A stretch of DNA of 64,000 nt from a phage. The DNA lies in NCBI GenBank assembly GCA_024682255.1, contig GCA_024682255.1_4716.1, one strand, 5' to 3'. Of the stretch, positions 10,167 through 64,000 are shown piece by piece. The position numbers were made by a program, and so were the translations under genes. The stretch's first letter is position 1. Each line of letters opens with the position of its first letter. The notes beneath the pieces were generated by a model, which did not search any database, was not told the DNA's origin, and was given only the letters and a program-made list of their open reading frames with translations.

Positions 10167-11093
10167 CTAAAAAGTTCCTCTGTTTCACGTTAATTAAACA
10201 ACGTATTGATTTCTGGTAACGATAACAATCCTAGTGATGTTATCAAAAAGGTAACGCTTACGCGTCGCGTTCATGATGCCATGCATCATGAAGGTAATAT
10301 AGCCGTGAAAGGATTTGTGTTACAGAAAGGGTTTTGTTGTTTTTAAGAAGAGATGGATTTAGAAGAGGTGTTGCAAGCAAGGAAGGTAAACGAGGATAGG
10401 TATTTTGATTTAAGTAAGTAAGATGTTATCTGTATTCGTTAAAAATGTATTGTCTAAGTTATCTTGTTTATCTTAGGTTATGTCTTATTGTTTAATCGTT
10501 TAATATTTTTATCTAAGTAGGTTTAACTCTATCTTGTTTGTATATTTAAATTAATTTAAAGTAGATCAATAAGCTTATCTTCAAAACAATGGATAACATG
10601 TGTTTACTACCTTAACGGTAACACATGTCATCTGTGCATTCACTCCGTTATCACTTCGTTACATGCTTATCAACGTTTTGTCTTCACAAAACGTTCAACT
10701 CAAAAAACCATTTGTGATACTCTTCTTCACGTTGTTCATCAGAGTATCTCGTCTATACTCATTGCATTCGTATACGACATAACCGTTATACGCTAACGCT
10801 ACGCTTATAGCTTGATAACTCTAAGGATAAAAACATAAACTCGCTTCGCTCGTTTAGTTTTTCTTTTTCTTAGAGTTATCCTGTTGCTCGTCTCTAAAGG
10901 ACTTCGCTCCTCCCCCGTCCCCCGAAGGGGCCGAGGTCGTGGAAATTTTACTTTCCAAATACATTTACAACATCTGTAAACTTTTACTCCAGGTACTTAA
11001 TCTTATCATTAGAAATTATAAAAGAGAAGAATAAACACAAACATAAACCTTCCTCCAACCCAACAGGGAAGGAGGAAGGGGGATTAATTAAAA
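10167..11093. other. long AT-rich non-coding region with reiterated TTATCT-type motifs and inverted repeats (regulatory hub, origin or ncRNA candidate)
   Basis: No ORF with RBS support in ~0.9 kb; repeated TTATCTTGTTT / TTATCTAAG motifs around 10.42-10.56 kb; 12-bp inverted repeat GATAACTCTAAG...CTTAGAGTTATC around 10.81-10.88 kb. Confidence 0.5.
11048..11079 (-). terminator. conserved hairpin element, AACCC-N4-GGGAA core (copy), downstream of 11094..11993
   Basis: CCTTCCTCCAACCCAACAGGGAAGGAGGAAGG; on minus strand followed by TTTATGTTTGTGTTTATT; identical 32-mer recurs at ~58629. Confidence 0.55.
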
Positions 11094-23008: not shown

Positions 23009-23040
23009 CCCTCCTCCAACCCAACAGGGAAGGAGGAGGG
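23009..23040. terminator. conserved hairpin element (AACCC-N4-GGGAA core) between convergent genes
   Basis: CCCTCCTCCAACCCAACAGGGAAGGAGGAGGG flanked by AAACATAA upstream and AATATG downstream. Confidence 0.55.
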
Positions 23041-38701: not shown

Positions 38702-40924
38702 TCAGTTGGTCTGAACCGGCAGCTTGATGTTTTCAGTGTAGACCTTACGCAGGTTCACAACGTTAATCAGACCCAGCAGCGGGCAGTTGTTAACGAAGCG
38801 GCAGCGCGGCTGAACCATGGTTTCTTTAGAAACCTGACCGTTACGGGTAACCTGAGCAACAGATACCAGTTCCGGTACATACAGGAACATACCGAAGGTC
38901 AGCGGATCCGGAGAACCCTGGATACCACGAGACAGGGTCACGAAGATCTTATCGCGCAGCATGACGTTCGGGTTATCTACAACCACGAAGTTGAAGCTTA
39001 CACCAACGGTACGGAAATCACCATCGGTCTGCAGGAACTGCGGGATGTAGTTGTCAGTTGCTACTACGCAACGCGGTTTCTCATCAGCGTTGGAAGACAG
39101 CAGCTGCAGAGCTGGCTGATAACCAGACTCGGAGTACATGCGGTATGCCATTTCACGAATCACGTTCATGATCGCAGCAGACACTTCAGCACGACGTTCT
39201 GCAGTGGTGGTACCCTGAACAGATTTCTCCAGGTCCAGATTGATTTCTTCGAACCACGGACGGATCAGGTAACGACCGAAACCTTCGATCTGGATGTCGC
39301 CGAACTGACGGAAGCGAGAGGTCGCAACCGCTTTCAGTGCGTCTTTGTAGCTGAACAGTTTCTCAACCATCAGGTTGTCGAAACGTGCGTTAGCAGCTTG
39401 GATCAGAACGTCCAGGTCAGCAGCGTTTTCTTCCCAATCCAGCGGACGAGGAATGGAGAACGGAGCCAGCAGGCCGATTGCGTAACGTTCTTGCTTCATG
39501 TTGAAGTCAAGGTGCTTACCACGCTCACGACGGTTGCTGTTGTTACGGCGGATACGCAGTTCGTAACCAACCAGTTTGAAGCTCAGGTCTTCAGCCAGTT
39601 GTTTGAACTCTTCGCTCTTACGCGGTTGTTCGATGTTGTCCTGATCAACCAGGCGATACAGTTCAGCGTTAGCGCCGTTAACACGCAGACCGGCTTTCTC
39701 TACGTTGGAAGAACCGTAAACTTCGATTGCCAGCTGAGCAGCGGATTTCGCATCGATGATGTCCTGCAGCGCTTCGGCTTTCGCGCCTTTAACGTCAACG
39801 GTGTTCTCATCAACGAAGATGGAGTGGGTGTCGAACGCCAGGGTCATTTTGCGGAAGTCGCCTTCCAGGGATTTCTGGAAACCGTTGGTGATCAGACCAG
39901 ATACGTCGAACGGTACGTAAGAGGTTTTGCTGTGCTTGGTAGATTTGATTTCCACCAGGATTTTGGTCAGCGTGATCTGGGCGTCCAGTGCGTCGGTGTT
40001 GTCGCTGTAACCGTTAGCCAGGATGCTATCGTCTTCAGCAATACCGATCATGTCGATCAGTTTATCAACAGCCAGGTAAGACGTTTTATAAGTTACGCCT
40101 TTAATTTCGATGTCACGCGGAGCAACGATAGTTTTGTCAACGAAGTACTGTGCGTTAGCATCGTCAGCACGATAGATCGGATGCAGATCGGTCACGTCGT
40201 TGGACAGAACGTCGTTGTACATGAACGCATCCAGCAGCGGACGACGTACCCAATCAGCCGGAGTACCGTCAGCGTTACGACGCAGGTGGTTGAACACCAG
40301 CGGACGACGGAAAGATACGTCGTAACCGATCTGGTTCGGAGCCAGAACGATGGTGTTATACAGTTCGTTACCCATGCGGCTCAGACGAGAAGCCTTCACG
40401 TTGAACACAACGGAGTACGGCATCATGTCACGCAGTTCTTTCTGGTCGTAGGACAGCTGAACCAGTTCTTCAGATTCGCAACCGCAGGAATCAGCAGCCA
40501 TCATGACGAAGTTAGAGCTGTCAACTTCACGGCCAGACGGAGTGGTGCTGATGTTCATGGAACGTGCTTGTTTAGCATATTCCACCGGGTTACCATGAGC
40601 CAGCATGATCAGTGCTGCTGCACGAGCCTGCTGTGCGTTCATGGTGAACAGCTGTTCTTCAATACGCTGCTTCTCTTCCGGAGTGGTGGTTTCGAAGCCC
40701 AGCATGGACAGAACCGGTTCTTCGGCTTTACGGATGTCGCTGCTGAAGCTCTTAACATCCATTTCGTTAACCAGTTTGTCCATGGATTTGAAATCAACCT
40801 TAGAAGCAGATTCCATAGACAGGAAGGTGTTCTCCAGACCTTTGTCTGCTGGTTTGCTACCATTAGCGGTCAGGAACTGGCGAGTGGCCGCGACCTGTTG
40901 GCTAAGAAGGGTTTTATCATTCAT
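38702..40924 (-). CDS. putative major capsid protein (jumbo-phage type, ~740 aa)
   Basis: 740-aa ORF with conspicuous high-expression codon usage (CTG, CGT, CCG, GGT, AAC, TTC dominate) unlike neighbours; tandem hairpins downstream; size fits phiKZ-like major capsid proteins; no sequence search possible. Confidence 0.5.
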   Translation of the reverse strand: MNDKTLLSQQVAATRQFLTANGSKPADKGLENTFLSMESASKVDFKSMDKLVNEMDVKSFSSDIRKAEEPVLSMLGFETTTPEEKQRIEEQLFTMNAQQARAAALIMLAHGNPVEYAKQARSMNISTTPSGREVDSSNFVMMAADSCGCESEELVQLSYDQKELRDMMPYSVVFNVKASRLSRMGNELYNTIVLAPNQIGYDVSFRRPLVFNHLRRNADGTPADWVRRPLLDAFMYNDVLSNDVTDLHPIYRADDANAQYFVDKTIVAPRDIEIKGVTYKTSYLAVDKLIDMIGIAEDDSILANGYSDNTDALDAQITLTKILVEIKSTKHSKTSYVPFDVSGLITNGFQKSLEGDFRKMTLAFDTHSIFVDENTVDVKGAKAEALQDIIDAKSAAQLAIEVYGSSNVEKAGLRVNGANAELYRLVDQDNIEQPRKSEEFKQLAEDLSFKLVGYELRIRRNNSNRRERGKHLDFNMKQERYAIGLLAPFSIPRPLDWEENAADLDVLIQAANARFDNLMVEKLFSYKDALKAVATSRFRQFGDIQIEGFGRYLIRPWFEEINLDLEKSVQGTTTAERRAEVSAAIMNVIREMAYRMYSESGYQPALQLLSSNADEKPRCVVATDNYIPQFLQTDGDFRTVGVSFNFVVVDNPNVMLRDKIFVTLSRGIQGSPDPLTFGMFLYVPELVSVAQVTRNGQVSKETMVQPRCRFVNNCPLLGLINVVNLRKVYTENIKLPVQTN

Positions 40925-43371: not shown

Positions 43372-43403
43372 CCCTCCTCCAACCCGTAAGGGAAGGAGGA
43401 GGG
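43372..43403. terminator. conserved hairpin element (AACCC-GTAA-GGGAA) between convergent genes
   Basis: CCCTCCTCCAACCCGTAAGGGAAGGAGGAGGG; A11 tract upstream (T11 on minus strand); GTTATG downstream. Confidence 0.55.
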
Positions 43404-46735: not shown

Positions 46736-46767
46736 CCCTCTCCCAACCCGTAAGGGAAGGGAGAGGG
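46736..46767 (-). terminator. conserved hairpin element (AACCC-GTAA-GGGAA)
   Basis: CCCTCTCCCAACCCGTAAGGGAAGGGAGAGGG flanked by GCATAGAA and AATATAT; 16-nt motif TCACCTAGGTAATGTA lies ~35 nt away. Confidence 0.55.
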
Positions 46768-50711: not shown

Positions 50712-52263
50712 AGCGTTTCACTCCTACGATGGTACCGACAAGAATTCTCGGTACGAATAAACTACGATGTTTGAACCATGAAGCGGTTGTTGGGATACGT
50801 TTGATGGCTTCGATAAGCCCGATTAGCGTATAGCACCCCCGACTGTTCTTCTTAGGCCAGTACTTTTTATCTAAACCTAATACCGCAAACAGTTCATCCA
50901 CCAGATTGGGATAACAACACAACGCTTCAAGTGTTTCAACCTGTAACTGACTTAAATCTAACAGTATTGCTAGACGAACGTGGTAATCACTCCGTAAGTC
51001 TAACGGATCTTTCGCTTCAAGATCACCAACGTCGGTTAATGCCCACGCGTCTCTTGCGTAGCGGTATTTACCCTTCCAAACCTCAAGGAAAAAAGGAGAC
51101 TGGTAGTGGCATTTTGACCATTCAGGGTACTCACGGAACCACCGAACAAGATCGGGATGGAATTCACCTTCTTCAGCTAACGAGTCCAACGTCACCAACA
51201 GGTTAGGTTGTTCAGGATCGATAGCAAGCAGCGCGGTGAAAAGCGTGCTTGATGGAAGTTCGGTTTCCATGCTCGATGGAGGCAACCATTCATCCAAATC
51301 GGGATACCGATACGCTTGAAGCGATGCACCTTGTTCCGGCAAGAACGAATCACGAAGAATGTCCTGATACTGCACCACCATACCACCACGACGTGCACGG
51401 GATTTATCGCGCACCGAGAGGCTTGGTTTGTAAAGGTACTCTTCGGGGAGTATCTGTTGATGTACTTGAACAGGATACCGTGCTACGATGTGTGTTGGTG
51501 TGTCGTACGTGTAACGGTAAGAGAAGGTTGCGTTGTACGAAGAACTGTTCTCATTCTTCTCGGGTTTTGGTGCGTCGGTGAAATCAAATTGACCAGAGAT
51601 CTCTTCTTGCATTTCCCTGATAACCAATTTAACGCTCTTACCGTCACCGGCAACTGTCGTCATGGTGGTTGCACGGTTGTCGAACCCGTCTCTAAGGTAT
51701 TCGCTGAACTTATCCCCGTAACCCGCTAATGCTTCTCGGTGTGTGTGAATAACTTTTAACAGCATGAGAAACTGTGTTGGGATCGCATAGCTGTATTCAG
51801 CGCTAAGAAAGGCAGCGACGTGCTGGCTTGTCAGCAAACGTTTCATGTCGTACCACCAACGTTCGGCAGTGACCTGATCTTCGAACCGTTTGGTGATCTG
51901 CATGGTTGCAACCATCGTACTGTAAACAGGTACCAGCGATACGCCAAGGTTACGGTCTTCGAATACGGGAAGACTGTTTCGTTTGTAAACAGTATCGTAC
52001 ATAGACGCCTGTTCTTCAGGGACAATGTTAAGTTCAATTTGGATAAACCCGTCAGCAGGCCCTTTTACATCCTGATCAACAACTTGCGGCGGTTGCTCGT
52101 TCGCAGCGCTCATTTTAGCGTGAAGCGCTTCCCCTCGAAAAAGAATGTTCTCCCGACTATAATCCCACCCGCAAAGCTCGCTGATCTGCCGTAACACCGC
52201 GATTGCAACCGGACGTGTTACCGTCGCGTATACGTCATTGATTTTTCGATCAAGTTTAGGCAT
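50698..52263 (-). CDS. hypothetical virion-type protein
   Basis: Start re-assigned to ATG (MPKLDRK) with GAGGAC RBS; ORF track began at GTG 52290. Confidence 0.55.
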   Translation of the reverse strand: MPKLDRKINDVYATVTRPVAIAVLRQISELCGWDYSRENILFRGEALHAKMSAANEQPPQVVDQDVKGPADGFIQIELNIVPEEQASMYDTVYKRNSLPVFEDRNLGVSLVPVYSTMVATMQITKRFEDQVTAERWWYDMKRLLTSQHVAAFLSAEYSYAIPTQFLMLLKVIHTHREALAGYGDKFSEYLRDGFDNRATTMTTVAGDGKSVKLVIREMQEEISGQFDFTDAPKPEKNENSSSYNATFSYRYTYDTPTHIVARYPVQVHQQILPEEYLYKPSLSVRDKSRARRGGMVVQYQDILRDSFLPEQGASLQAYRYPDLDEWLPPSSMETELPSSTLFTALLAIDPEQPNLLVTLDSLAEEGEFHPDLVRWFREYPEWSKCHYQSPFFLEVWKGKYRYARDAWALTDVGDLEAKDPLDLRSDYHVRLAILLDLSQLQVETLEALCCYPNLVDELFAVLGLDKKYWPKKNSRGCYTLIGLIEAIKRIPTTASWFKHRSLFVPRILVGTIVGVKRYGAR

Positions 52264-52639
52264 CGGTGTCGTCCTCGCTAATTTCCTCACCTCCTTGTTG
52301 TCGATATCCGGTATAATGAATCAGACTGCTCTGTAGAAGCTCTTTAACGAGCCCTAGACGCGTTTTATCTGTTTCATTGGACGTTTCCATTAATGTTTCT
52401 ATTTCGTTGTTTAAAACAGCGTATAGCGCTTCTAACGGCAATCCTTGGATGATTGGTTTGTTGGTACCTTCCGGTAGTGCCGCAACAGGAATCTGCACGA
52501 CGGTTTCATGTGCGGTATGTGGGTTGATACGGCAAATATACATACCGGGTACTGAATGTCGCGGGCACGCCGCTACCAAGCATGTCTGTTGCTGCGCACC
52601 GTTAAGTGCGAGTGAAAGAAATTTTGCTTCACGTGTCAT
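52256..52639 (-). CDS. hypothetical protein
   Basis: 127-aa ORF with CAGGAA RBS. Confidence 0.45.
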   Translation of the reverse strand: MTREAKFLSLALNGAQQQTCLVAACPRHSVPGMYICRINPHTAHETVVQIPVAALPEGTNKPIIQGLPLEALYAVLNNEIETLMETSNETDKTRLGLVKELLQSSLIHYTGYRQQGGEEISEDDTDA

Positions 52640-52691
52640 CGCAGATTCCTGTTTGAAAGATAAGATATCACATGATGGTCGACAGCATAAA

Positions 52692-52711
52692 GCCCACCCC
52701 GAAGGGCGGGC
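52692..52711 (-). terminator. GC-rich hairpin downstream of 52728..56114
   Basis: GCCCACCCCGAAGGGCGGGC; on minus strand followed by TTTATGCTGTC. Confidence 0.45.
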
Positions 52712-52727
52712 TGTTTATGCTTACGGA

Positions 52728-55700
52728 TTACTTGTAGGCACCGCAATGGGCTTTGATGAGGAAAAGCACTGCTTGCATCGGTTTATTGAACTGTTGCCAT
52801 AACGTCAATGCAGGATGGAACAACCAATCTTCCAGGCCGAGAACAATACCGTAGTTAACGACATTATTAACGTCGTTCTCAATGTTGAGTTCGCTGTCCA
52901 GGAATTTATCGATTGAACGCAGGGTCTGCATGGCATTGTCAGCAATAAGCCAAGCTTCATGCGCTTCACGAGCCGCACGCAGCACTGCTTCCAGTTCGCT
53001 GATAGTAGCTACCGGTAATTCCTCACTGGTAAGGTCGTCAGAAACCGTAAACTGGCGATTGATACCGGTGTAGATCCACTGCATCAGTTTCGCTGCTTCC
53101 TCGTTCGGGTTGTTACGCGTTGTCGCATAAGTCGCGCTCACCTTCACGATGTGCGTTTCACCAAGATACGCTTTGGAACCAACGCCTTTACGATCGCTGT
53201 TTTTCCACGGTTGTACGGTAGCGACCATGAGCTTATCCCATTTCTGAATAGGAATACGCTTCAGACCAACAACCGATCCAGCGGATGTTTCGGACTGGTT
53301 GCTCTTCCGCACTTCGCTGAGTTCACGATCGATAGCAACGATTAATTCGCGTGTCATGTTACCAAGCATTTTGATTTCACCCAACGCAGCGATGAGCTTC
53401 TTCACGTCGGTAACAGGTTCACCACCGATGGTAAGATGACGGATGAAACGTTTCAGAATAATCCGTTCTGCTGCTGGGTTACCACGACGCGCTTTAGCCA
53501 ATGCTTGCTGCGTTTCGGCGAACAGCTTATCCCATGGAGCCGTAGCAGCAGTATAGTAACGATGATTGGTTTCGATCCAATTACCGATACGGTTGACCGC
53601 ACTCTTAACGGTATCCATGAATCCTTCCATCGCAATTTCGGTAGCTTCGACGTTACCCTGGAAGTTATCAGGACCGATCTCACGTGCCGCTACCAGAATA
53701 CCTTCCACAGCACTCACCGCATGGCGACCGATAGCCAGATTTCGCTGTGCTTCTTCAGCACGCTCAACGAATTCCACCACCGCAGGATCATCAACGATTT
53801 CCGCCTCAGCAACAACACGTGTACCGGCATCGCCTTCCAGCGTCTCGATCGTTACAACAGGATCGTTTTCACCAGCAACATCCTGGTACTCTTCCTGTTT
53901 AAGATCACCGTTATCTGCCGCAGCGATAGCGTTCATTATGCGGATGGTGACCTCACCAAGTTCTTGCGAAACGAATCCATAAACGGTGCAAGCAGTCGTT
54001 GCGAAGTTCATCAATGTGCGCGTACGCTGCGTGATGTAACGTGCGCCGGATTCGTTTTCCAGTTTATCGAGATCCCGGATTAACTGCTCGGCTGTTTCTT
54101 GAAGCTGTGTTACCGCCTTCAAGAGATCTTCGTCGAACAGTTTCTTCGATGCATCAACTAACATATCAGCATTGACGTTGGATGGTACCGTATCGCCTTG
54201 CTGTTTCATCTCGCTCAGCTCATCGCGGAACTTACGGATACCTTCTAAAGCGTCGTCAACGGAATATCCGAATGCCTTAACGCCCGCCATTCCGAGAGCT
54301 GCTTTCATATCGCCAGGATGTTGAACTTGCTCGCCTTCCTTGCTGTTCTTTAACTCATCGAAATATTGACGTGATGCGTCCGCAATACGCTTGCTGTCTT
54401 TTACTGCGTTAACGATCTTATCAACCGATTTCGAATCGTTTGCAAGTAACGTGTCAAGCTTGTTCCATGCAACATCAACTTTCTTCCCGTTGTTAGCCTC
54501 GCCCGGCGGTGGAAGCAGCTTCATCACTGGTGTTGTGCGTTGTTCTTTGGTGAGCTTACCAGCTTTCTCTTCGATTTTCTTTTTATTAACACCGAAAAGT
54601 TTTCTTAGGCGCGCCACGATGGCTTTTAAGAACTTCACAACCGCTTCGTAAACCGATTTCAGGATCTGTTTAAAGCGACCGGGTTTCTTGTCACCGTCTT
54701 CCAGATTAAGATCGCTGTTCAGTGCGACATCAAGCTGTTTGTACGATTCCATGATGTATTCGTCTTTGATTTCAGGACGAATCTCGAAGCTTTCCATCGG
54801 ACCTTCAGCCGGACGGAATTCCATTTTCAGTTCGCCTTGCAGGGTAGGGTCGACAATGGCGATCGCTTCACCCTGACCATCAGCGTTAAAGCGTTCAGCG
54901 TAACGAGTACGGCGAACAATAACACTCTTATCCCCATCAAGACGACGTACCACCATGGTACCAGGAATGTATGGTTGTTCTGTTTCAATGACGGTTACAT
55001 CTGCTTCACCTTCGCCGAGAATAACAGATGCACGCTGTTCAACAACAGGAACATCTAATACACCACGGGCTTCCAGCTCTTGATGAATTTCGAACGACTC
55101 TTGTTTCAGATCTTCATCTTCTTCGTTTTCGTCGTCTTCATCATCGTCACCTTTGGTGTTTTCATCACCTTTGGTGGCTGTGGTGTCGGTAGCATCAGCA
55201 TCAGCGTCGGTGTTGGTAGCGTCTTCGGTCGCAGGTTCGGTGGTGTTGTCCTCCGTGGACGACCCGTCAGTGTTATCGACGTCAACATCACCTTGCAGTT
55301 CTGTTTCCTGAGCAACTGCTTCGGCTTTCTGCTCGCCGGTATTACCGTCATTAGCGTCGACAACAGGTTGTTCGTCAGCGACGGTATCTTCAACCTTTTC
55401 TACTTTCTCCACGACACGTTTAATCACGGTGACTTTGATGGGTTCTTCCGTTGTTTTGGTTTCTGGCGTCACCTCGGCTGCCGCAGCCGCTGTTTCAGCA
55501 ACAGGTTCTGCTTTTTCCGGTTCGACGACATTACCTTTAACGCCTTCGGTGGTTTCTGCAGGTTGCGCTGCCTGTTCGATTTGTGCCGGATTGGTTGGAT
55601 CGATGGCGTTAGCTGCATCCTGAATCTTGTTCTTCAGGTTGTCGCGGTCGGCGTTAACGGTCGGGTCATTGGTCACTTTCGGTGCCGGTGTTTCGGTCGG

Positions 55701-56114
55701 TGCGTTTGCCGGATACGGGTTCTTCGGCTCTTCGCCAGGTGCGGTCGGTACCGCGATCAGAACGAACGGTTGAACATCGTTACCGTCTTCCATGGTCACG
55801 CCGCCGTTGCTCGGTGTGAAACGAATTCGCAAGCTACCATCAATAGGACGGGTCACAATAACAGCACGTACGACATCTTCACCGTTTTCATCCGTGCTAC
55901 GAATCACACGAACAGCGTCATCAACAGTAGCCCCTTCCTCGAGCGTATCTGATTCGATCGTCGCTTCGATGCTGTCTGGCCGTGCCGCTGTAGGTAATGC
56001 GATCACTTGCTCTTCTTTATCAGTAGAAAGCGTTGCTTTGACTTCGATAGGTGTATCGCCGCTTTCCAGGTTAAGATGCGACTTACGCATCAGATCAGCT
56101 AACGATTTTTTCAT
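52728..56114 (-). CDS. very large virion-type protein with extended acidic low-complexity region (candidate internal head or ejection protein)
   Basis: 1128 aa with AAGAGGA RBS; residues ~130-330 are E/T/D/A/P-rich (e.g. TEDNTTEPATEDATNTDADADATDTTATKGDENTKGDDDEDDENEEDEDLKQ). Confidence 0.6.
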   Translation of the reverse strand: MKKSLADLMRKSHLNLESGDTPIEVKATLSTDKEEQVIALPTAARPDSIEATIESDTLEEGATVDDAVRVIRSTDENGEDVVRAVIVTRPIDGSLRIRFTPSNGGVTMEDGNDVQPFVLIAVPTAPGEEPKNPYPANAPTETPAPKVTNDPTVNADRDNLKNKIQDAANAIDPTNPAQIEQAAQPAETTEGVKGNVVEPEKAEPVAETAAAAAEVTPETKTTEEPIKVTVIKRVVEKVEKVEDTVADEQPVVDANDGNTGEQKAEAVAQETELQGDVDVDNTDGSSTEDNTTEPATEDATNTDADADATDTTATKGDENTKGDDDEDDENEEDEDLKQESFEIHQELEARGVLDVPVVEQRASVILGEGEADVTVIETEQPYIPGTMVVRRLDGDKSVIVRRTRYAERFNADGQGEAIAIVDPTLQGELKMEFRPAEGPMESFEIRPEIKDEYIMESYKQLDVALNSDLNLEDGDKKPGRFKQILKSVYEAVVKFLKAIVARLRKLFGVNKKKIEEKAGKLTKEQRTTPVMKLLPPPGEANNGKKVDVAWNKLDTLLANDSKSVDKIVNAVKDSKRIADASRQYFDELKNSKEGEQVQHPGDMKAALGMAGVKAFGYSVDDALEGIRKFRDELSEMKQQGDTVPSNVNADMLVDASKKLFDEDLLKAVTQLQETAEQLIRDLDKLENESGARYITQRTRTLMNFATTACTVYGFVSQELGEVTIRIMNAIAAADNGDLKQEEYQDVAGENDPVVTIETLEGDAGTRVVAEAEIVDDPAVVEFVERAEEAQRNLAIGRHAVSAVEGILVAAREIGPDNFQGNVEATEIAMEGFMDTVKSAVNRIGNWIETNHRYYTAATAPWDKLFAETQQALAKARRGNPAAERIILKRFIRHLTIGGEPVTDVKKLIAALGEIKMLGNMTRELIVAIDRELSEVRKSNQSETSAGSVVGLKRIPIQKWDKLMVATVQPWKNSDRKGVGSKAYLGETHIVKVSATYATTRNNPNEEAAKLMQWIYTGINRQFTVSDDLTSEELPVATISELEAVLRAAREAHEAWLIADNAMQTLRSIDKFLDSELNIENDVNNVVNYGIVLGLEDWLFHPALTLWQQFNKPMQAVLFLIKAHCGAYK

Positions 56115-56129
56115 AAAGCGTTATTCCTC

Positions 56130-57236
56130 TTAAAAGTAATATTTCAGCGCCTCGCGAGAGACATCAAGCATAGCCGCCGTTGAATTCGTAAAGAACTCGG
56201 CATAGCCCACAAGCGGCACCTTGATCCACGCGGTATACGCTGTAAGGTATCGAGAAAGGGCTACCATAGCATCATCAGAAGCAGTAGTAACTGACAACTG
56301 ACCTTGTTGACGATAAACGTCGTTAAGTTTTGCTTGTAGATTCCCTGCGATTTCGAGTAACTCGTTGGCGTACTTTTTACGATGGTAACTAACCAGCAAA
56401 TCAACACCCGTATTTACAGACTCGAGTAGCACACCAACTTGTTCTAATGTTGGCATTGTAACCACCATATCCCGTTCAACGGACGGTACATCCTGGACTT
56501 CAAACCGTGCGGATTGAATAGCAAGGGATTGTTGAATTGGACCAGAACCTGAGGCGGTAACCTGATCGAGTCGCAGCACACGGTTGCCCAGTAACGTTAC
56601 GTTGACGAGTCTCGATTCGTTCAGCGTACTGTAGACTTTATGCAATAACGTGTACGCATCACGGTTAATCACATCGATTAATGCGGTATCCGTCTGTTTT
56701 AAGATAATGTCGAGCGCTCTATCTAACGTATTAGCGAACTGCTTGAAATCATCACGGAATGACGAAGACAAGAGATATTCAGCGATTGCTAAATTCTGCT
56801 TGTATAACGTATTCCCGGTCGTGAAATCGAACCCAAAACTGTTTCCATACCGTAGGTGCGGAGCCAGCGTTGACGAAGCTTCGAAGCTTTGCGCGATGGG
56901 TTTACGACCAACGGCTTTTGTGTAATGACGACGGATGTTACTGAGTTCAAGTTGTAGTGCGCGACTACGATCGATAAACCGTGCGATAAACGCGGTGATG
57001 TTTCGCAACGTTGTCCAGATTGCATCGATGATAGCTTTGATGATTTTCATCGCAAGCTGATCGTACGATTCCATTGTGAGGAGATCAGCACTTTCTGTGG
57101 TATAACCGGTCGTCGGAATACCGCCTGCTTGCTGATAAATAAGCTGGTGAATTTGTCGTTGCGTTGCTGTCTCTGGCACAGGTAATGTTTTTAACAAGCT
57201 TAACGCTTGAATCTGTCCATCATAGGTCTGCAGCAT
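56130..57236 (-). CDS. member 1 of tandem paralog array (inner-body/internal head protein-like)
   Basis: Start re-assigned to ATG (MLQTYDG) with GAGGAAACC RBS; segment AMKIIKAIIDAIWTTLRNITAFIARF aligns with the other four members. Confidence 0.5.
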   Translation of the reverse strand: MLQTYDGQIQALSLLKTLPVPETATQRQIHQLIYQQAGGIPTTGYTTESADLLTMESYDQLAMKIIKAIIDAIWTTLRNITAFIARFIDRSRALQLELSNIRRHYTKAVGRKPIAQSFEASSTLAPHLRYGNSFGFDFTTGNTLYKQNLAIAEYLLSSSFRDDFKQFANTLDRALDIILKQTDTALIDVINRDAYTLLHKVYSTLNESRLVNVTLLGNRVLRLDQVTASGSGPIQQSLAIQSARFEVQDVPSVERDMVVTMPTLEQVGVLLESVNTGVDLLVSYHRKKYANELLEIAGNLQAKLNDVYRQQGQLSVTTASDDAMVALSRYLTAYTAWIKVPLVGYAEFFTNSTAAMLDVSREALKYYF

Positions 57237-58521
57237 TGCTGGTTTCCTCAAGTTCGAGATGCGCATCAAGATAATCATTAAGACCATCGATGACGTCGCA
57301 GACAGTTAACAGGAATCGGGCAAAAGCGACCGCCTGGAAGCCGACGACGTTACGCGCGATACCTACACGTTGAACGATAGCGGATGCGGCGGTATCGTTG
57401 TTGTCCATCTGTTGTAGCAAACGCTCGTAAGGTTGAATCCATTCGTCCTGGTCGGCAAGGCTTGCTTCAAGACAACGCTTAAATTCTAACTGTCGCAGCG
57501 TAGACCATAACGTACTTAATGCGTTGATGATTGCGTTGGTTCCGTCGATAACATCGTTTAACGGCAAGAAACGGAATCCGTCTTTTGCTGATTGGAAAGA
57601 TACGGCTTCCCACACAACGCTGAACTGCGTTCCTGTTGCGTCTTCGATGTTGTGTAATTTAAGATAGGAAGCACCAACAGGTACGTCAACGACCAGATCG
57701 TCTGTTCCGGTAGGCGTTAACGGCTTCTCGCATAACGCATCGTTGATGACTTCGAGGATATTCTCCCAACAGGCTTCGTTTTCTGCAGCGATACCTTCTT
57801 TGTTATCCGCTGATGGTGCTTTTAGTAGCTGCATTAATAACGGATCAAGTTGACGATGCCATGCTGCGAGGATTCCTGTGTTCGTTACGATGTTTTCTGC
57901 GGTTTGTCGTAAATCAGCAATACTGCTTACCGCACCGCCTTTCGGATGAAGATACCGCCAGTTATAAGGAAAGTTCTCCCAGAATGCGTTATCTTCATTA
58001 ACGTCGTATTCGGAAATATTTTTCAACGCAGTCGCTTTCTTTAATAACGGCTTCACCTGACGAACGAATCGACGATAACAACGATTGCAGATATCGATCG
58101 CGTAGCGGTACAATTCGTTCATGTAAAGCCATAACGCTCGGGTTGCTTCTTTTGCGGTCTTGTCAAAACTTTCCATGTTCAGGCTCATTCCGCTGGAAGT
58201 TTCCTCTTCCAGACCCTCGATGATGTGGTTTGGGTCCATTCCCATTCCAGCTGCTGCGGTCGATGCGATATGTTTGATGGTGCTGATATCGCGTTCTTCA
58301 ACTTCAGCCATGTTTGGGACAATATCCAGCCTGAGTTTATTTAATGTTTGAAGGTGTTGTTCACCTTCTTTCATCACCGTGTTTGTTTCGTCGATTGAGT
58401 GAAACTGATTCTCAATATTACCGGCATCGAGAATATTGCCAGCGATACCGAACGATTCTACAGGTTCATCATCAATCCCTTGAAACAACGATGTCATGGG
58501 TTGTTGTAACACGTTTTCCAT
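57220..58521 (-). CDS. member 2 of tandem paralog array
   Basis: 433 aa with AGGAG RBS; ISTIKHIASTAAAGMGM...TAKEATRALWLYMNELYRYAID shared with members 3 and 4. Confidence 0.6.
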   Translation of the reverse strand: MENVLQQPMTSLFQGIDDEPVESFGIAGNILDAGNIENQFHSIDETNTVMKEGEQHLQTLNKLRLDIVPNMAEVEERDISTIKHIASTAAAGMGMDPNHIIEGLEEETSSGMSLNMESFDKTAKEATRALWLYMNELYRYAIDICNRCYRRFVRQVKPLLKKATALKNISEYDVNEDNAFWENFPYNWRYLHPKGGAVSSIADLRQTAENIVTNTGILAAWHRQLDPLLMQLLKAPSADNKEGIAAENEACWENILEVINDALCEKPLTPTGTDDLVVDVPVGASYLKLHNIEDATGTQFSVVWEAVSFQSAKDGFRFLPLNDVIDGTNAIINALSTLWSTLRQLEFKRCLEASLADQDEWIQPYERLLQQMDNNDTAASAIVQRVGIARNVVGFQAVAFARFLLTVCDVIDGLNDYLDAHLELEETSNAADL

Positions 58522-58628
58522 TTGGGACTCCTACGTAGGAAAATCTTGGCGGGTGATCATGTCCGCCATTTACCTTCTGAACCGTTGATTCAGAAGTCAA
58601 AAGATAACCGGATACCAACGCCATAAAA

Positions 58629-58660
58629 CCTTCCTCCAACCCAACAGGGAAGGAGGAAGG
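58629..58660 (-). terminator. conserved hairpin element (identical 32-mer to the copy at ~11048)
   Basis: CCTTCCTCCAACCCAACAGGGAAGGAGGAAGG flanked by GCCATAAAA and GATATGG; lies between paralog members 3 and 2. Confidence 0.55.
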
Positions 58661-58670
58661 GATATGGTGA

Positions 58671-59960
58671 TTATGCTTTTTCGGTTACAGCATCGAAATA
58701 TTTCGCTGCGGCAAATACAGCATCTGCATATTGACGGTTAGCAACACGGAGAATCTTAGCTGCTAATACCGCGCTCAATCGCGCCATTTCAGAAATGGCG
58801 CTTATATAAGGGCGAACGGTTTCACGATCTGCTTCCGGTAGATTGTCGAGCATACCGTCCCATTTAGTTTTAATTTTCATACCGTTTAGTTTAGCGGTAC
58901 GTTCGACAGTACTCGTTAAACTTTCTGTCTGGCGAAAATACGCGGGGTCAACGACACGAAACGCGTTAAGATACGAAGTCAGTGCGGCTTTCAATTCGTC
59001 GTCGTTATTGAAAATGTTCGCGTTTTCGATACTACCGGTCGCGGTTTCTTCAACTTCGATCTGAATATTCTTCACGAGCGCGCAGGCCTTAATGGTATCT
59101 TTCTCAGCCAAAAGAGCGTCAAGACCTTTAACAACATATCGTTTCCCACCGCTTTCTGGTATTTTGAGTCCTTTTAACGCAGGCTTGATGGCGTAAATAT
59201 AATCGTCCAGAATATCGGCAAGTGTCGTCAAATCGGTTAGTTTATTAACTTTCTTGTTAATGTCGTCAGTTTGGAGTAGTAAAAAAGCGGATGCTTGTGT
59301 GGATGCCGCTAACTGCTCAATATGTTTACGAACCTCCAACGCGTTAACCATTTTTGCGTTAGGGAACATGCTAATCATATTCCCGGTCGGTTTATTTAGT
59401 TGTTTGATGTGACGCTCGCCTTTATTTACAGCGGTTGCAACATCGGTAATTTTTTTATACGCTACCGCAAGGTTTTTGAAAAGCAGCTGAATCAGTTTAC
59501 ATAGCTGTTCAGCCATGTTCGCAATGATTACCCAAACTGCGTATAACGCTTGCGCAGCGCGTTCTTTAAAGCCTTCCAGCACAATAGCTTGCCCTTCCAC
59601 CAAACGATCGTCAGCTTGGAACATGTCTTCATCAGACATCCCCAGGTTAGCTGCTGACGTCGAAGCAATCTGACGGATAAGGGCGACGTCGCTCGCACGT
59701 GCTTCCGAGATCGTTGGTGCGATCATGTACGCTGTATCTTCCAGCGTTGCTGAGGTACGCACTGCAATTTCAGCCAGTTCGCTGGATTCATCGATCGTCT
59801 CGTCGGTGCGTCGAATCACCAACTCAACTTCGTCCTCTTCGATTTCCGCGTTAGGATCATTTTGCTCCGTCGGAATTGCCGCAAGAAGATCTTCGGCGCT
59901 GAGCAATGCGAGTTCGAATGCGTTTTTATTGACGTTATCGAAAAGAGAGATGCGGGCCAT
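58671..59960 (-). CDS. member 3 of tandem paralog array
   Basis: 429 aa with AAGGAAC RBS; APTISEARASDVALIRQIASTSAANLGM...EGFKERAAQALYAVWVII closely parallels member 4. Confidence 0.6.
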   Translation of the reverse strand: MARISLFDNVNKNAFELALLSAEDLLAAIPTEQNDPNAEIEEDEVELVIRRTDETIDESSELAEIAVRTSATLEDTAYMIAPTISEARASDVALIRQIASTSAANLGMSDEDMFQADDRLVEGQAIVLEGFKERAAQALYAVWVIIANMAEQLCKLIQLLFKNLAVAYKKITDVATAVNKGERHIKQLNKPTGNMISMFPNAKMVNALEVRKHIEQLAASTQASAFLLLQTDDINKKVNKLTDLTTLADILDDYIYAIKPALKGLKIPESGGKRYVVKGLDALLAEKDTIKACALVKNIQIEVEETATGSIENANIFNNDDELKAALTSYLNAFRVVDPAYFRQTESLTSTVERTAKLNGMKIKTKWDGMLDNLPEADRETVRPYISAISEMARLSAVLAAKILRVANRQYADAVFAAAKYFDAVTEKA

Positions 59961-59969
59961 GTTAGTTCC

Positions 59970-61287
59970 TTAACCTTTGGTATAAGCTTTAACGAGAGTG
60001 TTGATAAATGAAGTCAGTGCGCGAAGATACTGGTAAGCGAACTGGTTTTGAATACGGTTCTCTTTACCGCAAAGCAGAATCGCGCGCTTAACGAGCTTAG
60101 GATAGATCTCGATGTACGGTTGGTAGCTCGCATCAAAATTCTGCTCGTTGAAGCGTTTCATGGTGATTTCCTGGATGCGCTCCATGGTGCGAATTTTATT
60201 GCGAGAGAACATCTCAGAGAAAGCACGTCCGCGTTTTGTTACCATCAACAGATCTTTCGCGAACGTCAGTTGTCGAACGCTACGCAAATCGTCAGGTGTT
60301 GGTAGGACGTACGTTTCTGGATCGCTATCCCATTCAACATCTTCAACGACAATATCCAAGTCGAGGTAACGTTTAACCGCATCGATGATGTTGTCTTTTG
60401 ATGCGTCGAATTCTTTCAAGAAGACTGCGCCGTTGATGTAACGAATGCGTTTTCCGGAAACCGTTGGGGTGATAACGTCAGTACCTTCCACGGAACCGCG
60501 ATTTTCCAGTGTCGATTTGACAGCGTGCAAGAAAGACAGATAATCAACAGGAAGTTTTTCAACCTTATCTAAATGGAAGTCGATGATGTTTAATCCTAAC
60601 CCATCAATAACCGAATGACCATCCGATTTAAGGAACATCTGATTGAAGGTATCGATGTTGCTTTTCAGCGTGTCTACACCACCGACTTTGTTACGGTTAG
60701 GGAAAAGTGTCCGCCACTCCGCTTTAAACGCAACTTCTTTATTTTCCTCGTATTTGCCTTTAGGCATTTGTTCGAGGGCTGCAACGGCTTTCTGAAAATT
60801 GCGCGTCTCGTCGTAAACAAGACGGGTCAGCTTCTCGAAGGCTGCTGCCAAGGTCAGGGCAATATCAACAATGATATCCCAGATCTTTTTCATGGCTTTT
60901 ACAACGGTGTCCTTAAACCCTTCAACAACCAAAGCTTCTCCAACCTCAACACGATCGGTTGGCGTCAGCAATGCTTCGGAGGGTAGACCCAGAGCAATCG
61001 ACGCGGATTCTTGCACGTTACGAACTAATGCAACGTCACTGTAGTTAGCCGATTCGATAGTCGGAGCAACATCAAAACTGATTTCCCGTAATGCGGCAAC
61101 AGCAGGGAAAGCACGATCAAGTGCATCTTCATGTTCGTCGATTGTCGCCAAACGTAATTCAACGCCATCGGCATCGATGACATCGACTGTAGGCTCCACA
61201 GCAAGCGCCTCAGCAACAATAGGATCTTTTTCAAACGCCTCAAGGCTAATATCGCCTTGGGTCGCAAATAACGGTATGTGTACCATG
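59970..61287 (-). CDS. member 4 of tandem paralog array
   Basis: Start re-assigned to ATG (MVHIPLF) with GGAGA RBS (ORF track began at TTG 61310); APTIESANYSDVALVRNVQESASIALGL...EGFKDTVVKAMKKIWDII. Confidence 0.6.
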
Positions 61288-61334
61288 TGTTGTCTCCAGT
61301 AATGATTCAAAAGATAAACCTGGACGGCATAGAA

Positions 61335-61366
61335 CCCTCTCCCAACCCGTCAGGGAAGGGAGAGGG
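61335..61366 (-). terminator. conserved hairpin element (AACCC-GTCA-GGGAA)
   Basis: CCCTCTCCCAACCCGTCAGGGAAGGGAGAGGG flanked by GCATAGAA and AATATGTC; lies between paralog members 5 and 4. Confidence 0.55.
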
Positions 61367-61388
61367 AATATGTCAGTTTATTAACTGA

Positions 61389-62717
61389 TTACTGCTGTGC
61401 TGCGTCAGCCGGTTTCTCAGCCGCCTGGCCGCCGTACTCTTTCAGCATTTTAGCAACACCATCCAGGACAGCGTTACCTGCCTGAACACCGTATTTCATC
61501 AGACCAGTCTGCGGGTTCACGTAGCAGGAACGTGCGTCTTTCAGTGCAGACAGTACAGCTTGAACACGCTGTTTTTCCTGAGCGGAAACTTCGCCTTTCT
61601 TAGACAGATCGGCTTCCATATCGTCACCGAATTTAACAGCGTCTTTGAAGCCCTGGGATTTCTTACCGATGTTGCCTTTCAGCGCCAGCAGTTTGTCAGC
61701 CAGTACTTCAACACCGCTAACCGCAGCGGCCAGCTGATTCGGAGATAGAACTTTAGCCTCTTGCTGCAGCGCAGTAATGGCGTTAGCACCGCGTTCCCAG
61801 GTTACTTTCCCATCTGTGGTTTTGAATCCCCAATCGTTCGGACCTTTAACGTCAGCGATTGCTGGTGCGTTCAGTTTATCAGTGTATTCGGTGTGGGACT
61901 TAGATTTGACTAACCCAACGAATTTATCAGCACGATCGTCAGCAGCCTTCATTGCTTTCTCGAAGGTGTCAGTGATTTTAGTCGCCGCGGTAACCAGATC
62001 AAGGCCGCCGATATAACCTGTAGCGCTACCCAGTAAAACTTTATCGTTCTTCGGAGTACCTTTACGTTTGGCGATCATTTCTTTCAGTTTAGCAGCACGT
62101 GCTTTCAGTTTGGTCGCGCCGTCGAAGATACGATCCATGAACTTCACGAAGGTTTCCCAGGAAGTTTTCAGGAAGTTCTTGATGGTTGCCCACAGTTTCT
62201 GCCACCATTTTTGTTCTTCCAGGAAGATCATGTTGGTCGCATCGTAACGGGAAGCGGAACCACCGAAGCTTTCGAAGGACGGCATGGTTTCCGGCATTTT
62301 GAAACCGATAGTACCACACAGACGTTTCAGATTACGCATGTGTTCCTGAGCGGTCTGTGCAGACATACCGCCGTCTTTCAGGTAGCTTTCGGTTGCAACA
62401 ACGGTTTCCGTCAGTTCGTCCATGGCTTCATCCATGGCTTCTGCGGTTTCGTCGTCTTTTGCAATTTCGATAACAACAGCATCAACCTGCTCGATATCAC
62501 CACGAACTTCGATAGCCAGTTCGGTTTCAGCTGCGGTATCTTCAGCGATTTCAGCACGTTCGGTCAGCTCAGCCACAACGGTTTCATCCGCTGGTGCAGC
62601 ATCAGCTGCCGGTTCTGCTTCAACGGTTGCCGCTGCATCCGGATCGATCTCAGCAGCCAGTTGAACCAGCTGTGCGTTAGATGGATTTGCGACAAGACGA
62701 TCAAAAATAGAAGGCAT
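61389..62717 (-). CDS. member 5 of tandem paralog array (most divergent, acidic N-terminal region)
   Basis: 442 aa; acidic A/E/D-rich N-terminal third, same overall architecture as members 1-4; high-expression-like codon usage. Confidence 0.55.
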   Translation of the reverse strand: MPSIFDRLVANPSNAQLVQLAAEIDPDAAATVEAEPAADAAPADETVVAELTERAEIAEDTAAETELAIEVRGDIEQVDAVVIEIAKDDETAEAMDEAMDELTETVVATESYLKDGGMSAQTAQEHMRNLKRLCGTIGFKMPETMPSFESFGGSASRYDATNMIFLEEQKWWQKLWATIKNFLKTSWETFVKFMDRIFDGATKLKARAAKLKEMIAKRKGTPKNDKVLLGSATGYIGGLDLVTAATKITDTFEKAMKAADDRADKFVGLVKSKSHTEYTDKLNAPAIADVKGPNDWGFKTTDGKVTWERGANAITALQQEAKVLSPNQLAAAVSGVEVLADKLLALKGNIGKKSQGFKDAVKFGDDMEADLSKKGEVSAQEKQRVQAVLSALKDARSCYVNPQTGLMKYGVQAGNAVLDGVAKMLKEYGGQAAEKPADAAQQ

Positions 62718-62742
62718 AATTTGTTTCCTTTACAATAAATTG

Positions 62743-62758
62743 CACATTAGCTAATGTG
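62743..62758. promoter_or_regulatory. perfect 16-bp palindrome CACATTAGCTAATGTG upstream of 61389..62717
   Basis: 8+8 bp perfect inverted repeat ~25 nt upstream of the start codon, next to a TTGTAAAGGA motif also seen before the putative capsid gene. Confidence 0.4.
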
Positions 62759-62781
62759 GCTTAAGCGAACCGTTAGTCCAC

Positions 62782-63312
62782 TTAAAAGCCCTTAAAACCC
62801 GGTGCCATAGGTTGCCCAAACACCGCATTCAAAGTACATATGATGTCTTGGATGCCATTGTCCCAATGGAGCCAAGTACGCACCATCTCTTCGTCTGACA
62901 ACGTGATATAACTCATAAGTTTACCGCTGCTTTCCAGACGTTGGTGCGAACTTAACGACTGACGATCTGACCAGTTATCAATCAATTGACCCGCAATCTG
63001 AACGTTCGTGTCTCGTCTACCCGTGTGAATGAACCGTAGTGTATCACGGATAAACTCCAGACTGGTGAAGTTCAGATTTGGGTTATGGCTGTTCATTTCC
63101 ACCCAATCGGTGATAGGGTACATCAAACGATAAAGGGTAGAAAGAACCTGACGTTCATATTTCCAGTCATCGAGAGGAGTACCGTCGACCAGACGCTGAT
63201 ACAAACTAACAACGTCACGATCGTAGTTCTCCTGACGTTTTACACCGTTAACCGGGAATCCAAAGAACCCGGTACCGTATAACGTTAAAGGGACGTCACG
63301 AAGTGCATTCAT
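62782..63312 (-). CDS. hypothetical protein
   Basis: 176-aa ORF; start ATG overlaps upstream TGA as ATGA. Confidence 0.5.
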   Translation of the reverse strand: MNALRDVPLTLYGTGFFGFPVNGVKRQENYDRDVVSLYQRLVDGTPLDDWKYERQVLSTLYRLMYPITDWVEMNSHNPNLNFTSLEFIRDTLRFIHTGRRDTNVQIAGQLIDNWSDRQSLSSHQRLESSGKLMSYITLSDEEMVRTWLHWDNGIQDIICTLNAVFGQPMAPGFKGF

Positions 63313-64000
63313 ACAGCCGCCTCTTCTTGTCGTTTAATATCATAACGAAGTTTCTTCAGTCGCTCTTCGTGATATTCGATCTGCTGCTGGATTTTTGGAT
63401 CGTTGCCTGCATTCTGCTGTTTTTGCTTCAGTGACAAAATCCAATATTCCAACGCTTGGGCTTCTTCTTTGGCTGCTTGTAACGACGCTTCTTCACGTTC
63501 GCTGCGCCAGATACGGAAACGGTAAACAAGCGTGTCGGTTACATCACCGTTAGCCCACGAGCCCAGACGCATCGGGTCGGTATTACCCGCATTGTACAGT
63601 CCGTTACCAACACCGTCTTCATCAGAAACCACAACATCCGGGATTTTATCCAACCCCGCAAGGATCTGTTGTTTCTGTCCGCACAGCACTTCGGTGGCGA
63701 CAGCAAAACCGTACATGTTGGCGGTCAGGTAAGCGATCTCGTTTTTAGTGAAGAATTCACCAAGCGCTTTATCACCACCCGGCATGCTTTCGCAGATGAC
63801 TGCTGCACGAAGCAGTGTGCGAGAATAGCTAACGTAGAAGCCCAGTGCTTCAACAAGACGTACCAGAGCGGCTTCTTTGAAACTTAGACCGTCGGCAGCA
63901 ACATCGATTTCCAGGTTTTTGTTAACACGTTTAACGATTTCTGGAATCAGGTCAACAGCATTACGTAGCGCTAAGTGAACGTTTTCTACCCAGCTTCCAG
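63309..64000 (-). CDS. hypothetical protein, probably longer than ORF-track call and truncated by window end
   Basis: ORF track gives 63309..63785, but the same frame has no in-frame stop from 63786 to the window edge and translates to coherent sequence (...NVHLALRNAVDLIPEIVKRVNKNLEIDVAADGLSFKEAALVRLVEALGFYVSYSRTLLRAAVICES-MPGGDK...); weak RBS before the ATG at 63785. Confidence 0.45.
   Translation of the reverse strand, partial: GSWVENVHLALRNAVDLIPEIVKRVNKNLEIDVAADGLSFKEAALVRLVEALGFYVSYSRTLLRAAVICESMPGGDKALGEFFTKNEIAYLTANMYGFAVATEVLCGQKQQILAGLDKIPDVVVSDEDGVGNGLYNAGNTDPMRLGSWANGDVTDTLVYRFRIWRSEREEASLQAAKEEAQALEYWILSLKQKQQNAGNDPKIQQQIEYHEERLKKLRYDIKRQEEAAV

Follow-up and report, generated by a model that had tools for sequence, protein, structure and literature searches.

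The window analysed here is a 64,000-nucleotide stretch of phage DNA (contig GCA_024682255.1_4716.1 of NCBI GenBank assembly GCA_024682255.1). Within it, a first-pass annotation made from the letters alone had picked out a tandem array of five paralogous genes resembling the internal head (inner body) proteins of phiKZ-like jumbo phages. We found that positions 56130-62717 are filled by five contiguous open reading frames (ORFs), all on the minus strand as that annotation had it. We refer to them as gene E (61389..62717, 442 amino acids), gene D (59970..61286, 438 amino acids), gene C (58671..59960, 429 amino acids), gene B (57220..58521, 433 amino acids) and gene A (56130..57236, 368 amino acids). 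The common size of ~430 amino acids claimed for them is right for the first four and not for A. For A and D we placed the start further downstream than in the longest ORF (57287 to 57236 and 61310 to 61286, respectively) because the internal ATG is used in 6/6 relatives, and gene A overlaps the end of gene B by 17 nucleotides. Adjoining the array on the same strand is the much longer gene F (52728..56114, minus strand, 1128 amino acids). At the other end, gene G (62782..63312, minus strand, 176 amino acids) codes for a protein homologous to phiKZ gp91, a vertex-binding protein (Pfam PF25618 PhiKZ_gp91, E value 1e-46), and provides an anchor for synteny.

Between positions 56000 and 63000 the window shares 95.6% nucleotide identity with Escherichia phage vB_EcoM_Goslar, a 237-kb nucleus-forming jumbo phage of the Chimalliviridae. 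Judged by this identity, the window is from a Goslar-like chimallivirus, a close relative of the Escherichia coli jumbo phage Goslar that represents a different isolate or strain. Genes A, B, C, D, E and F correspond one-to-one and in the same order to Goslar gp54, gp55, gp56, gp57, gp58 and gp53, with 91–98% amino acid identity for the six proteins, and gene G corresponds to gp59, which was modelled within the vertex-binding complex in the Goslar cryo-electron microscopy (cryoEM) paper. The Goslar record annotates the matching genes, gp053-gp058, as hypothetical proteins. The locus has already been described in Goslar in a 2026 preprint (bioRxiv 10.64898/2026.04.21.720040), and is no new kind of system: that study reported that gp53 and gp58 carry the Pfam domain PF12699, that gp54-gp57 have the PF12699 fold according to AlphaFold3 predictions, and that the genes are syntenic with phiKZ gp92-97. 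A cleavage-type motif, the hairpin elements, a second module in gp53 and the variability of gp56 and gp57, all taken up below, are not discussed there. The layout of the array was the same in another five Goslar-like genomes, recovered from metagenomes and from assemblies of bacteria, and the array was kept in all relatives examined. A tblastn search of 50,697 phage records with C and E returned nothing useful beyond Goslar.

Family membership of the array proteins

The similarity between the five genes turned out to be uneven. In an all-versus-all BLASTP comparison, C and D matched with an E value of 8e-18, B and D with 1.6e-9, and B and C with 5e-9, each over the first 125–180 residues and far beyond chance; A and E had no significant similarity to other members of the array. 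Direct sequence paralogy therefore covers three genes (B, C and D) rather than five. The conserved blocks that had been quoted as common to the whole array are found in full in C (APTISEARASDVALIRQIASTSAANLGM and EGFKERAAQALYAVWVII) and in D (APTIESANYSDVALVRNVQESASIALGL and EGFKDTVVKAMKKIWDIIV) and in degenerate form in B, but A and E are tied to the others by profile methods only.

Those methods place the array in the family PF12699 (phiKZ_IP, ‘phiKZ-like phage internal head proteins’), for which the curated cut-off is 27 bits. E, the orthologue of gp58 and the dominant internal head/ejection protein of this family, scored 70.3 bits (E value 2.3e-19) over profile positions 6–385 of 387, and also matched two PHROG ‘internal head protein’ families. 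Below the cut-off were D (24.4 bits, E value 2e-5), residues 740–1128 of F (26.6 bits, E value 4.4e-6, just short of it) and A (20.1 bits, E value 4e-4), the last over profile positions 89–384 of 387, a span equal to that of phiKZ gp96. Scores of this order are not unusual in the family: phiKZ gp96, an undisputed member, reaches 31.8 bits, and phiKZ gp97 has no PF12699 match.

As B and C had no Pfam match, we built a profile from B, C, D and the orthologues of C. Searched against 1.84 billion representative proteins, it returned only 18 matches, and 6 of the 10 remote matches that were scanned exceeded the PF12699 cut-off. Five of these (P0072, P0073, P0075, P0076 and P0077) are full-length PF12699 proteins covering nearly the whole profile, with E values from 7e-42 to 1e-13, and the sixth (P0068) matches only part of it. 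When aligned by hhalign to a 26-sequence family alignment made from those matches, A, which was not included in the alignment, gave 94% probability (E value 1.3e-7) and the C-terminal module of F gave 89%; the unrelated neighbours phiKZ gp89, gp90 and gp98, run as negative controls, gave 0.1–0.2%. A comparison by hhalign of thin, seq-poor profiles (7 orthologues each) with single phiKZ proteins linked only B, C and D. It is too insensitive to decide the matter, because known phiKZ paralogues also went unlinked in it.

The fold of the array proteins was examined here for B, and its AlphaFold2 model (predicted local distance difference test score [pLDDT] 73, predicted template modelling score 0.75) supports an elongated, mainly alpha-helical structure. 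Foldseek comparison of this model with viral structures gave 104 matches at E≤1e-3. The top 50 matches, those listed, came from jumbo phages, including 201phi2-1, PhiPA3 and PhiEaH1, and those with names were called ‘internal head protein’ or ‘virion structural protein’. The alignments ran over ~430 columns, the full length of B, with template modelling scores of 0.5–0.64. Sequence searches of the PDB with E and with the family profile found no relatives.

Gene order tells the same story. Set against the phiKZ map, Goslar gp63, gp62, gp61, gp60 and gp59 in the Goslar record correspond to phiKZ gp87, gp88, gp89, gp90 and gp91, gp58-gp53 to gp92-97, and gp51-gp48 to gp98-101. The array thus follows the gp91 homologue in both phages as five proteins of ~370–550 amino acids and then a long one. 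The short member of phiKZ, gp96 (371 amino acids), lies opposite A, its positional counterpart, and the long last member, gp97 (816 amino acids), lies opposite F. We regard the array as the counterpart of phiKZ gp92-gp97 and of SPN3US gp53/gp54, abundant head proteins of the same family that serve as ejection proteins. SPN3US differs in having two paralogues only, and phiKZ in that pairwise sequence identity with the Goslar-like proteins is undetectable without profiles.

Together, the Pfam, profile, hhalign and fold results indicate that all five genes and at least one module of F belong to PF12699. The proposed resemblance to internal head proteins was thus borne out by searches of the BLAST and HHpred type, with E above the family threshold, D, A and the C-terminal part of F near it, and B and C joined through D, the profile search and the fold of B. 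The adjacent 1128-residue protein, said to fit the same pattern, does so through its C-terminal third. It is very probable, in our judgement, that the array consists of five diverged PF12699 paralogues of jumbo-phage internal head/ejection proteins that are made late, built into the prohead and kept in the filled head, and that F is a sixth, longer member fused to extra domains.

Protein architecture and a candidate maturation site

A typical member of the array has a short conserved N-terminus (xLF), an acidic N-terminal part of ~55–165 residues (hereafter the N-part) and an elongated, mostly alpha-helical core. The N-parts of E, D, C and B have an isoelectric point (pI) of ~4.05–4.2 and a net charge of −17 to −27, in line with the acidic N-terminal regions that had been noted for the array; A, with a short N-part of net charge −3, does not conform. 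The core that follows the junction is basic (pI 8.8–9.5) in E, D, C and both modules of F. At the extreme N-termini (residues 1–20) of C, D, B and E there is a short xLF/xIF motif (ISLF, IPLF, TSLF, PSIF), and an (S/A)-x-E motif occurs within ~25 residues of the N-terminus in C (AFE16), D (SLE16) and E (AAE23). These two features are reminiscent of SPN3US gp53/54 and phiKZ gp93 (SLE-13), which have conserved N-termini and cleavage sites early in the sequence.

Gene F appears to be composite. An N-terminal domain is followed by an acidic low-complexity stretch (residues 121–340), a weakly supported internal-head-like module (~456–739), an acidic linker (740–830) and the PF12699 module (831–1128), such that acidic stretches (121–340, 341–455 and 740–830) alternate with basic helical ones (456–739 and 831–1128). 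A local family hidden Markov model (HMM) matched F at two places in the same profile register in 7/7 orthologues, the second place being at ~480–590. Aligned to the family alignment, this middle module gave an hhalign probability of 21%, a weak signal that does no more than suggest a second module in F. The relatives hardly differ from each other in the C-terminal module but do so in the middle one. Because there is so little variation in the orthologue alignment, the AlphaFold2 model of F(441–1128) was too poor (pLDDT 46) for structure search.

In phiKZ, the prohead protease gp175 cuts the N-terminal region of gp93 from its helical domain, and residues 14–84 stay behind as a staple on the inner capsid wall (PMC11297242); the motif of this protease is S-x-E (PMC5694885). 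In SPN3US, cleavage after A-x-E removes a propeptide of 125 residues from gp53 and one of 137 residues from gp54, leaving the mature N-termini GWKETLKDLFER and SLWDDIK (PMC10052503). When these proteins were aligned to the family HMM, the SPN3US gp53 site (AQE125|GWKETL) fell in the same column as VLE129|GFKER in C and VVE122|GFKDT in D, so that the mature SPN3US N-terminus GWKETL aligns with GFKER and GFKDT here. The same column holds NME117|SFDK in B, TME56|SYDQ in A, AME830|GFMD in F and FLE167|EQKW in E, as well as SLE|D, SLE|D, SQE|E, STE|D and SLE|S in phiKZ gp92, 93, 94, 95 and 97. A glutamate at the boundary between N-part and core is thus conserved between the Goslar-like and phiKZ proteins; they differ in that the junction is S-x-E in phiKZ and mostly lacks S-x-E in the Goslar-like proteins. 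An xME|(S/G)(F/Y) motif recurs in F, at 441 (PME|SFEI), 456 (IME|SYKQ) and 830 (AME|GFMD), with xME|DG at 109 (TME|DGND).

Because it lines up with the cleavage site mapped in SPN3US gp53 and with the S-x-E sites of phiKZ, the ‘EGFK’ block that had been quoted as a mark of paralogy is most likely a candidate maturation site at the start of the helical core. From the alignment we infer prohead-protease cleavage in the Goslar-like lineage, where SPN3US has cleavage shown by experiment. Residues 61–170, around the junction, are the most constrained part of the genes, with a ratio of nonsynonymous to synonymous substitution rates (dN/dS) of 0.03–0.07. The protease in question would be Goslar gp212, a homologue of phiKZ gp175 (30% identity, E value 9e-25) whose gene lies outside the window; no prohead protease is encoded within the window. 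It would cut after the conserved glutamate at the boundary between acidic N-part and core (E|GFK) and so free a basic core able to lie against packaged DNA, to which such a core may bind, while the N-terminal pieces may stay on the capsid wall as in phiKZ gp93. A further candidate site was seen in the major capsid protein of the window (38702-40924, minus strand), which reads ...CESEE|LVQLS around residues 150–158. The cryoEM model of the Goslar major capsid protein begins at residue 158, with the first 157 residues absent (10.64898/2026.04.21.720040), and S-E-E153, just before that start, is therefore a candidate prohead-protease site of the S-x-E type.

Virion content, variability and competing interpretations

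The Goslar orthologues of all six proteins are present in purified virions, the opposite of the absence from purified particles that was to refute the proposal. Liquid chromatography–tandem mass spectrometry gave ~2150 copies of gp58, ~330 of gp53, ~70 of gp54, ~50 of gp55, ~60 of gp56 and ~50 of gp57 per virion, numbers that carry ~50% error (10.64898/2026.04.21.720040). In this respect phiKZ differs, with several members at ~100–200 copies where Goslar has one dominant member. Goslar gp58 is injected (10.64898/2026.04.21.720040), and injection is also reported for several phiKZ members. In the course of infection, the proteins encoded by the array would be made late, built into the prohead and retained in the DNA-filled head, in numbers of thousands for E and of tens to hundreds for the others, and at least E would leave the capsid with the DNA when the next cell is infected. 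A similar path is taken by T4 IPI, IPII and IPIII, which are directed to the core of the prohead, shortened by its protease and injected along with the DNA (PMC10052503); the T4 proteins are much smaller, with no sequence or fold relationship found or expected, and are analogues rather than relatives.

Several observations weigh against parts of this interpretation. The acidic/basic scheme is not universal, since B is acidic throughout and A has no acidic N-part. Three positions ahead of the proposed cut, where the phiKZ and SPN3US proteases would lead one to expect S, A or G, five of the six proteins carry V, V, N, T or F, and only gene F has A; in those five, the search for protease-type cleavage motifs yielded the conserved glutamate without the expected residue before it. 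We also searched the public Goslar virion peptide table for peptides in its portion from A to ‘ELK’, and N-part peptides were present for gp58 (55–72 and 115–128), gp55 (52–62) and gp53 (84–96, 182–193 and 202–220), which argues that the N-parts are not simply removed. One low-scoring gp53 peptide (809–834) spans the proposed site in F. Only gp57 lacks such peptides, with 0 of 3 testable N-part peptides in that portion of the table. This would mean that cleavage is partial, that some members are uncut, or that the head retains the N-parts, as it does with phiKZ gp93. Lastly, Goslar micrographs, the asymmetric (C1) map and symmetry expansion show no inner-body density (10.64898/2026.04.21.720040), and we accordingly use ‘inner body’ as a family name rather than for a structure demonstrated here. 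The claim that these proteins form an inner body keeps the backing of family membership and is at odds with the Goslar cryoEM.

The members of the array differ in how fast they change. Among relatives L001-L006, amino acid identity was 65–98% for C, the array’s most variable member, and 73–98% for D, against 94–100% for flanking head genes; E was 91–93% identical to Goslar gp58. Synonymous divergence of C and D reached 1.7–2.7, compared with 0.26 in the adjacent gp91-like gene, and their dN/dS was 0.10–0.12, compared with 0.01–0.03 in flanking genes. The variation in C and D is located past residue 170, and the N-terminal 170 residues are conserved. This pattern points to mosaic exchange of alleles at C and D.

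Among the competing interpretations we first consider that the proteins make up a classical phiKZ-type inner body, an ordered protein spool with DNA wound around it and a mainly structural role in packaging and ejection. Membership in the family, a gene order shared with the proposed inner-body proteins of phiKZ, and the thousands of gp58 copies per Goslar virion would all agree with it. An inner body has been reported in phiKZ, yet none is visible in Goslar micrographs, the asymmetric map or symmetry expansion, recent phiKZ asymmetric maps are also without one, and several members, gp58 among them, are injected and found alongside the DNA in the host. We consider such a spool unlikely.

In another interpretation, A-D would be stoichiometric minor capsid proteins, present at about one per icosahedral asymmetric unit on the inner wall near the vertex-binding complex, and only E, and perhaps F, would be cargo for ejection. 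The copy numbers of Goslar gp54-gp57 (~70, 50, 60 and 50) are near the 55–60 per capsid that this would need, the array lies directly downstream of the vertex-binding gene gp59, the Goslar cryoEM paper describes unassigned helical-bundle density around the vertex-binding complex as ‘reminiscent of the PF12699 fold’, and the phiKZ PF12699 proteins gp93 and gp162 give capsid-bound pieces (PMC11297242). Against this, the copy numbers are uncertain by about half, no density has been assigned to these proteins, and C and D are far more variable than the capsid proteins they would contact. We judge it improbable that A-D have this role.

It is also conceivable, and in our view rather doubtful, that Goslar-like phages divide two roles among these proteins. 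E would be the bulk ejected cargo and the four low-copy paralogues would be the unassigned helical density at the vertex-binding complex, as distant structural relatives of the vertex protein phiKZ gp86, with C and D as exchangeable variable cassettes. If this were true, the variability of C and D could mean contact with a variable host factor after injection. That the similarity of the five genes is chance or compositional, reflecting unrelated adjacent helical, acidic proteins, is already refuted and can be given practically no weight: A and E had no significant BLASTP match to the others and thin-profile hhalign failed for them too, but the BLASTP values within the trio of B, C and D (8e-18 for C-D and ~1e-9 for the two pairs with B), the Pfam value of 2.3e-19 for E, the hhalign value of 1.3e-7 for A with controls at 0.1–0.2%, the full-length fold matches of B and the conservation of the array in all relatives examined all contradict it.

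Our preferred interpretation, five PF12699 internal head/ejection proteins and a longer sixth, bears on a family whose members are among the most abundant head components of chimalliviruses, some of them entering the host with the DNA. The role of PF12699 proteins remains ‘a key unsolved mystery’ (10.64898/2026.04.21.720040). To this our additions are modest: a candidate maturation site common to the Goslar-like, SPN3US and phiKZ proteins, the layout of acidic N-part and basic core, a possible second module in gp53, and the recognition of gp56 and gp57 as the array’s fast-changing members.

Hairpin elements and occurrence of Goslar-like genomes

Two conserved hairpins had been described as inserted within the array. 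Copy 1 (61328..61372, minus strand) starts 16 nucleotides after the E stop codon, has a folding energy of −28.2 kcal/mol (z −4.6) and takes the form CATA-TT-CCCTCTCCC-TT-CCC-TGAC-GGG-TT-GGGAGAGGG-TTC-TATG; its position is kept in relatives L002-L006 and in Goslar. Copy 2 (58621..58667, minus strand) starts 3 nucleotides after the C stop codon (−29.4 kcal/mol, z −5.0), and its stem differs from that of copy 1 by compensated changes (CCTTCCTCC/GGAGGAAGG compared with CCCTCTCCC/GGGAGAGGG). Both are real and near-identical, and the positions after E and after C are kept in all relatives examined, but their occurrence extends beyond the array. Six copies are present in the window, compared with a chance expectation of 0.26; every one is on the minus strand and shortly follows a stop codon, at 11055-11070, 23016-23031, 43379-43394, 46743-46758, 58636-58651 and 61342-61357. 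Goslar has 11 (at 15778, 27746, 48106, 49776, 61009, 63715, 71990, 93445, 134585, 224383 and 237245), most of them without annotation in the Goslar record, and two other Goslar-like contigs gave at least 10 matches each. The consensus is an imperfect palindrome of 45–47 nucleotides, CATA-TT-(9 pyrimidines)-TT-CCC-NNNN-GGG-TT-(9 purines)-TT(C)-TATG, with conserved T-T mismatches. Folding energies across the family range from −27 to −31 kcal/mol (z −4.3 to −6.8), and where the stems of two copies differ, a change in one arm is matched by a compensating change in the other.

Copies lie 3–25 nucleotides after stop codons. In Goslar the distance is 5–20 nucleotides, mostly after virion-structural genes, and the strand polarity relative to the gene is the same. 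A consensus terminator scan did not call the hairpins, whose tail is no more than UUUUAU or UUCUAU, part of which pairs with the upstream CAUA, and an Rfam scan of 52000-64000 found no family for them and only a chance microRNA match. The hairpins behave as terminator-like or 3'-end elements of late genes that are dispersed genome-wide, rather than as insertions specific to the array. As such they would split the array into three units, namely E; D and C; and B, A and F. The ~40-fold excess of gp58 over gp57-gp54 would be consistent with attenuation at the first hairpin.

The gap between C and B also contains a weaker, unrelated stem-loop (58547..58568, minus strand; −9.8 kcal/mol, z −2.1), which is a putative terminator in the Goslar record. 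The motif GTTWATCTTTTGA, found downstream of both hairpins, was considered as a general promoter motif and rejected, as the window has 5 matches compared with 4.5 expected. At two hairpin positions in L003 (8614 and 11323) and one in L006 (11323), orthologous to the copies at 61342-61357 and 58636-58651 of the window, the inner 14 nucleotides (TT-CCC-loop-GGG-TT) are flipped, giving AA...AA on the gene strand, and the outer flanks are unflipped; this looks like a small inversion within the palindrome.

Many NCBI assemblies filed under Salmonella enterica, E. coli, Shigella and Enterobacter contain contigs that are Goslar-like phage genomes of ~235–250 kb (for example P0017, P0029, P0049, P0083 and P0150). 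This suggests that Goslar-like phages are common in cultures or samples of enterobacteria, either in a carrier state or through contamination.

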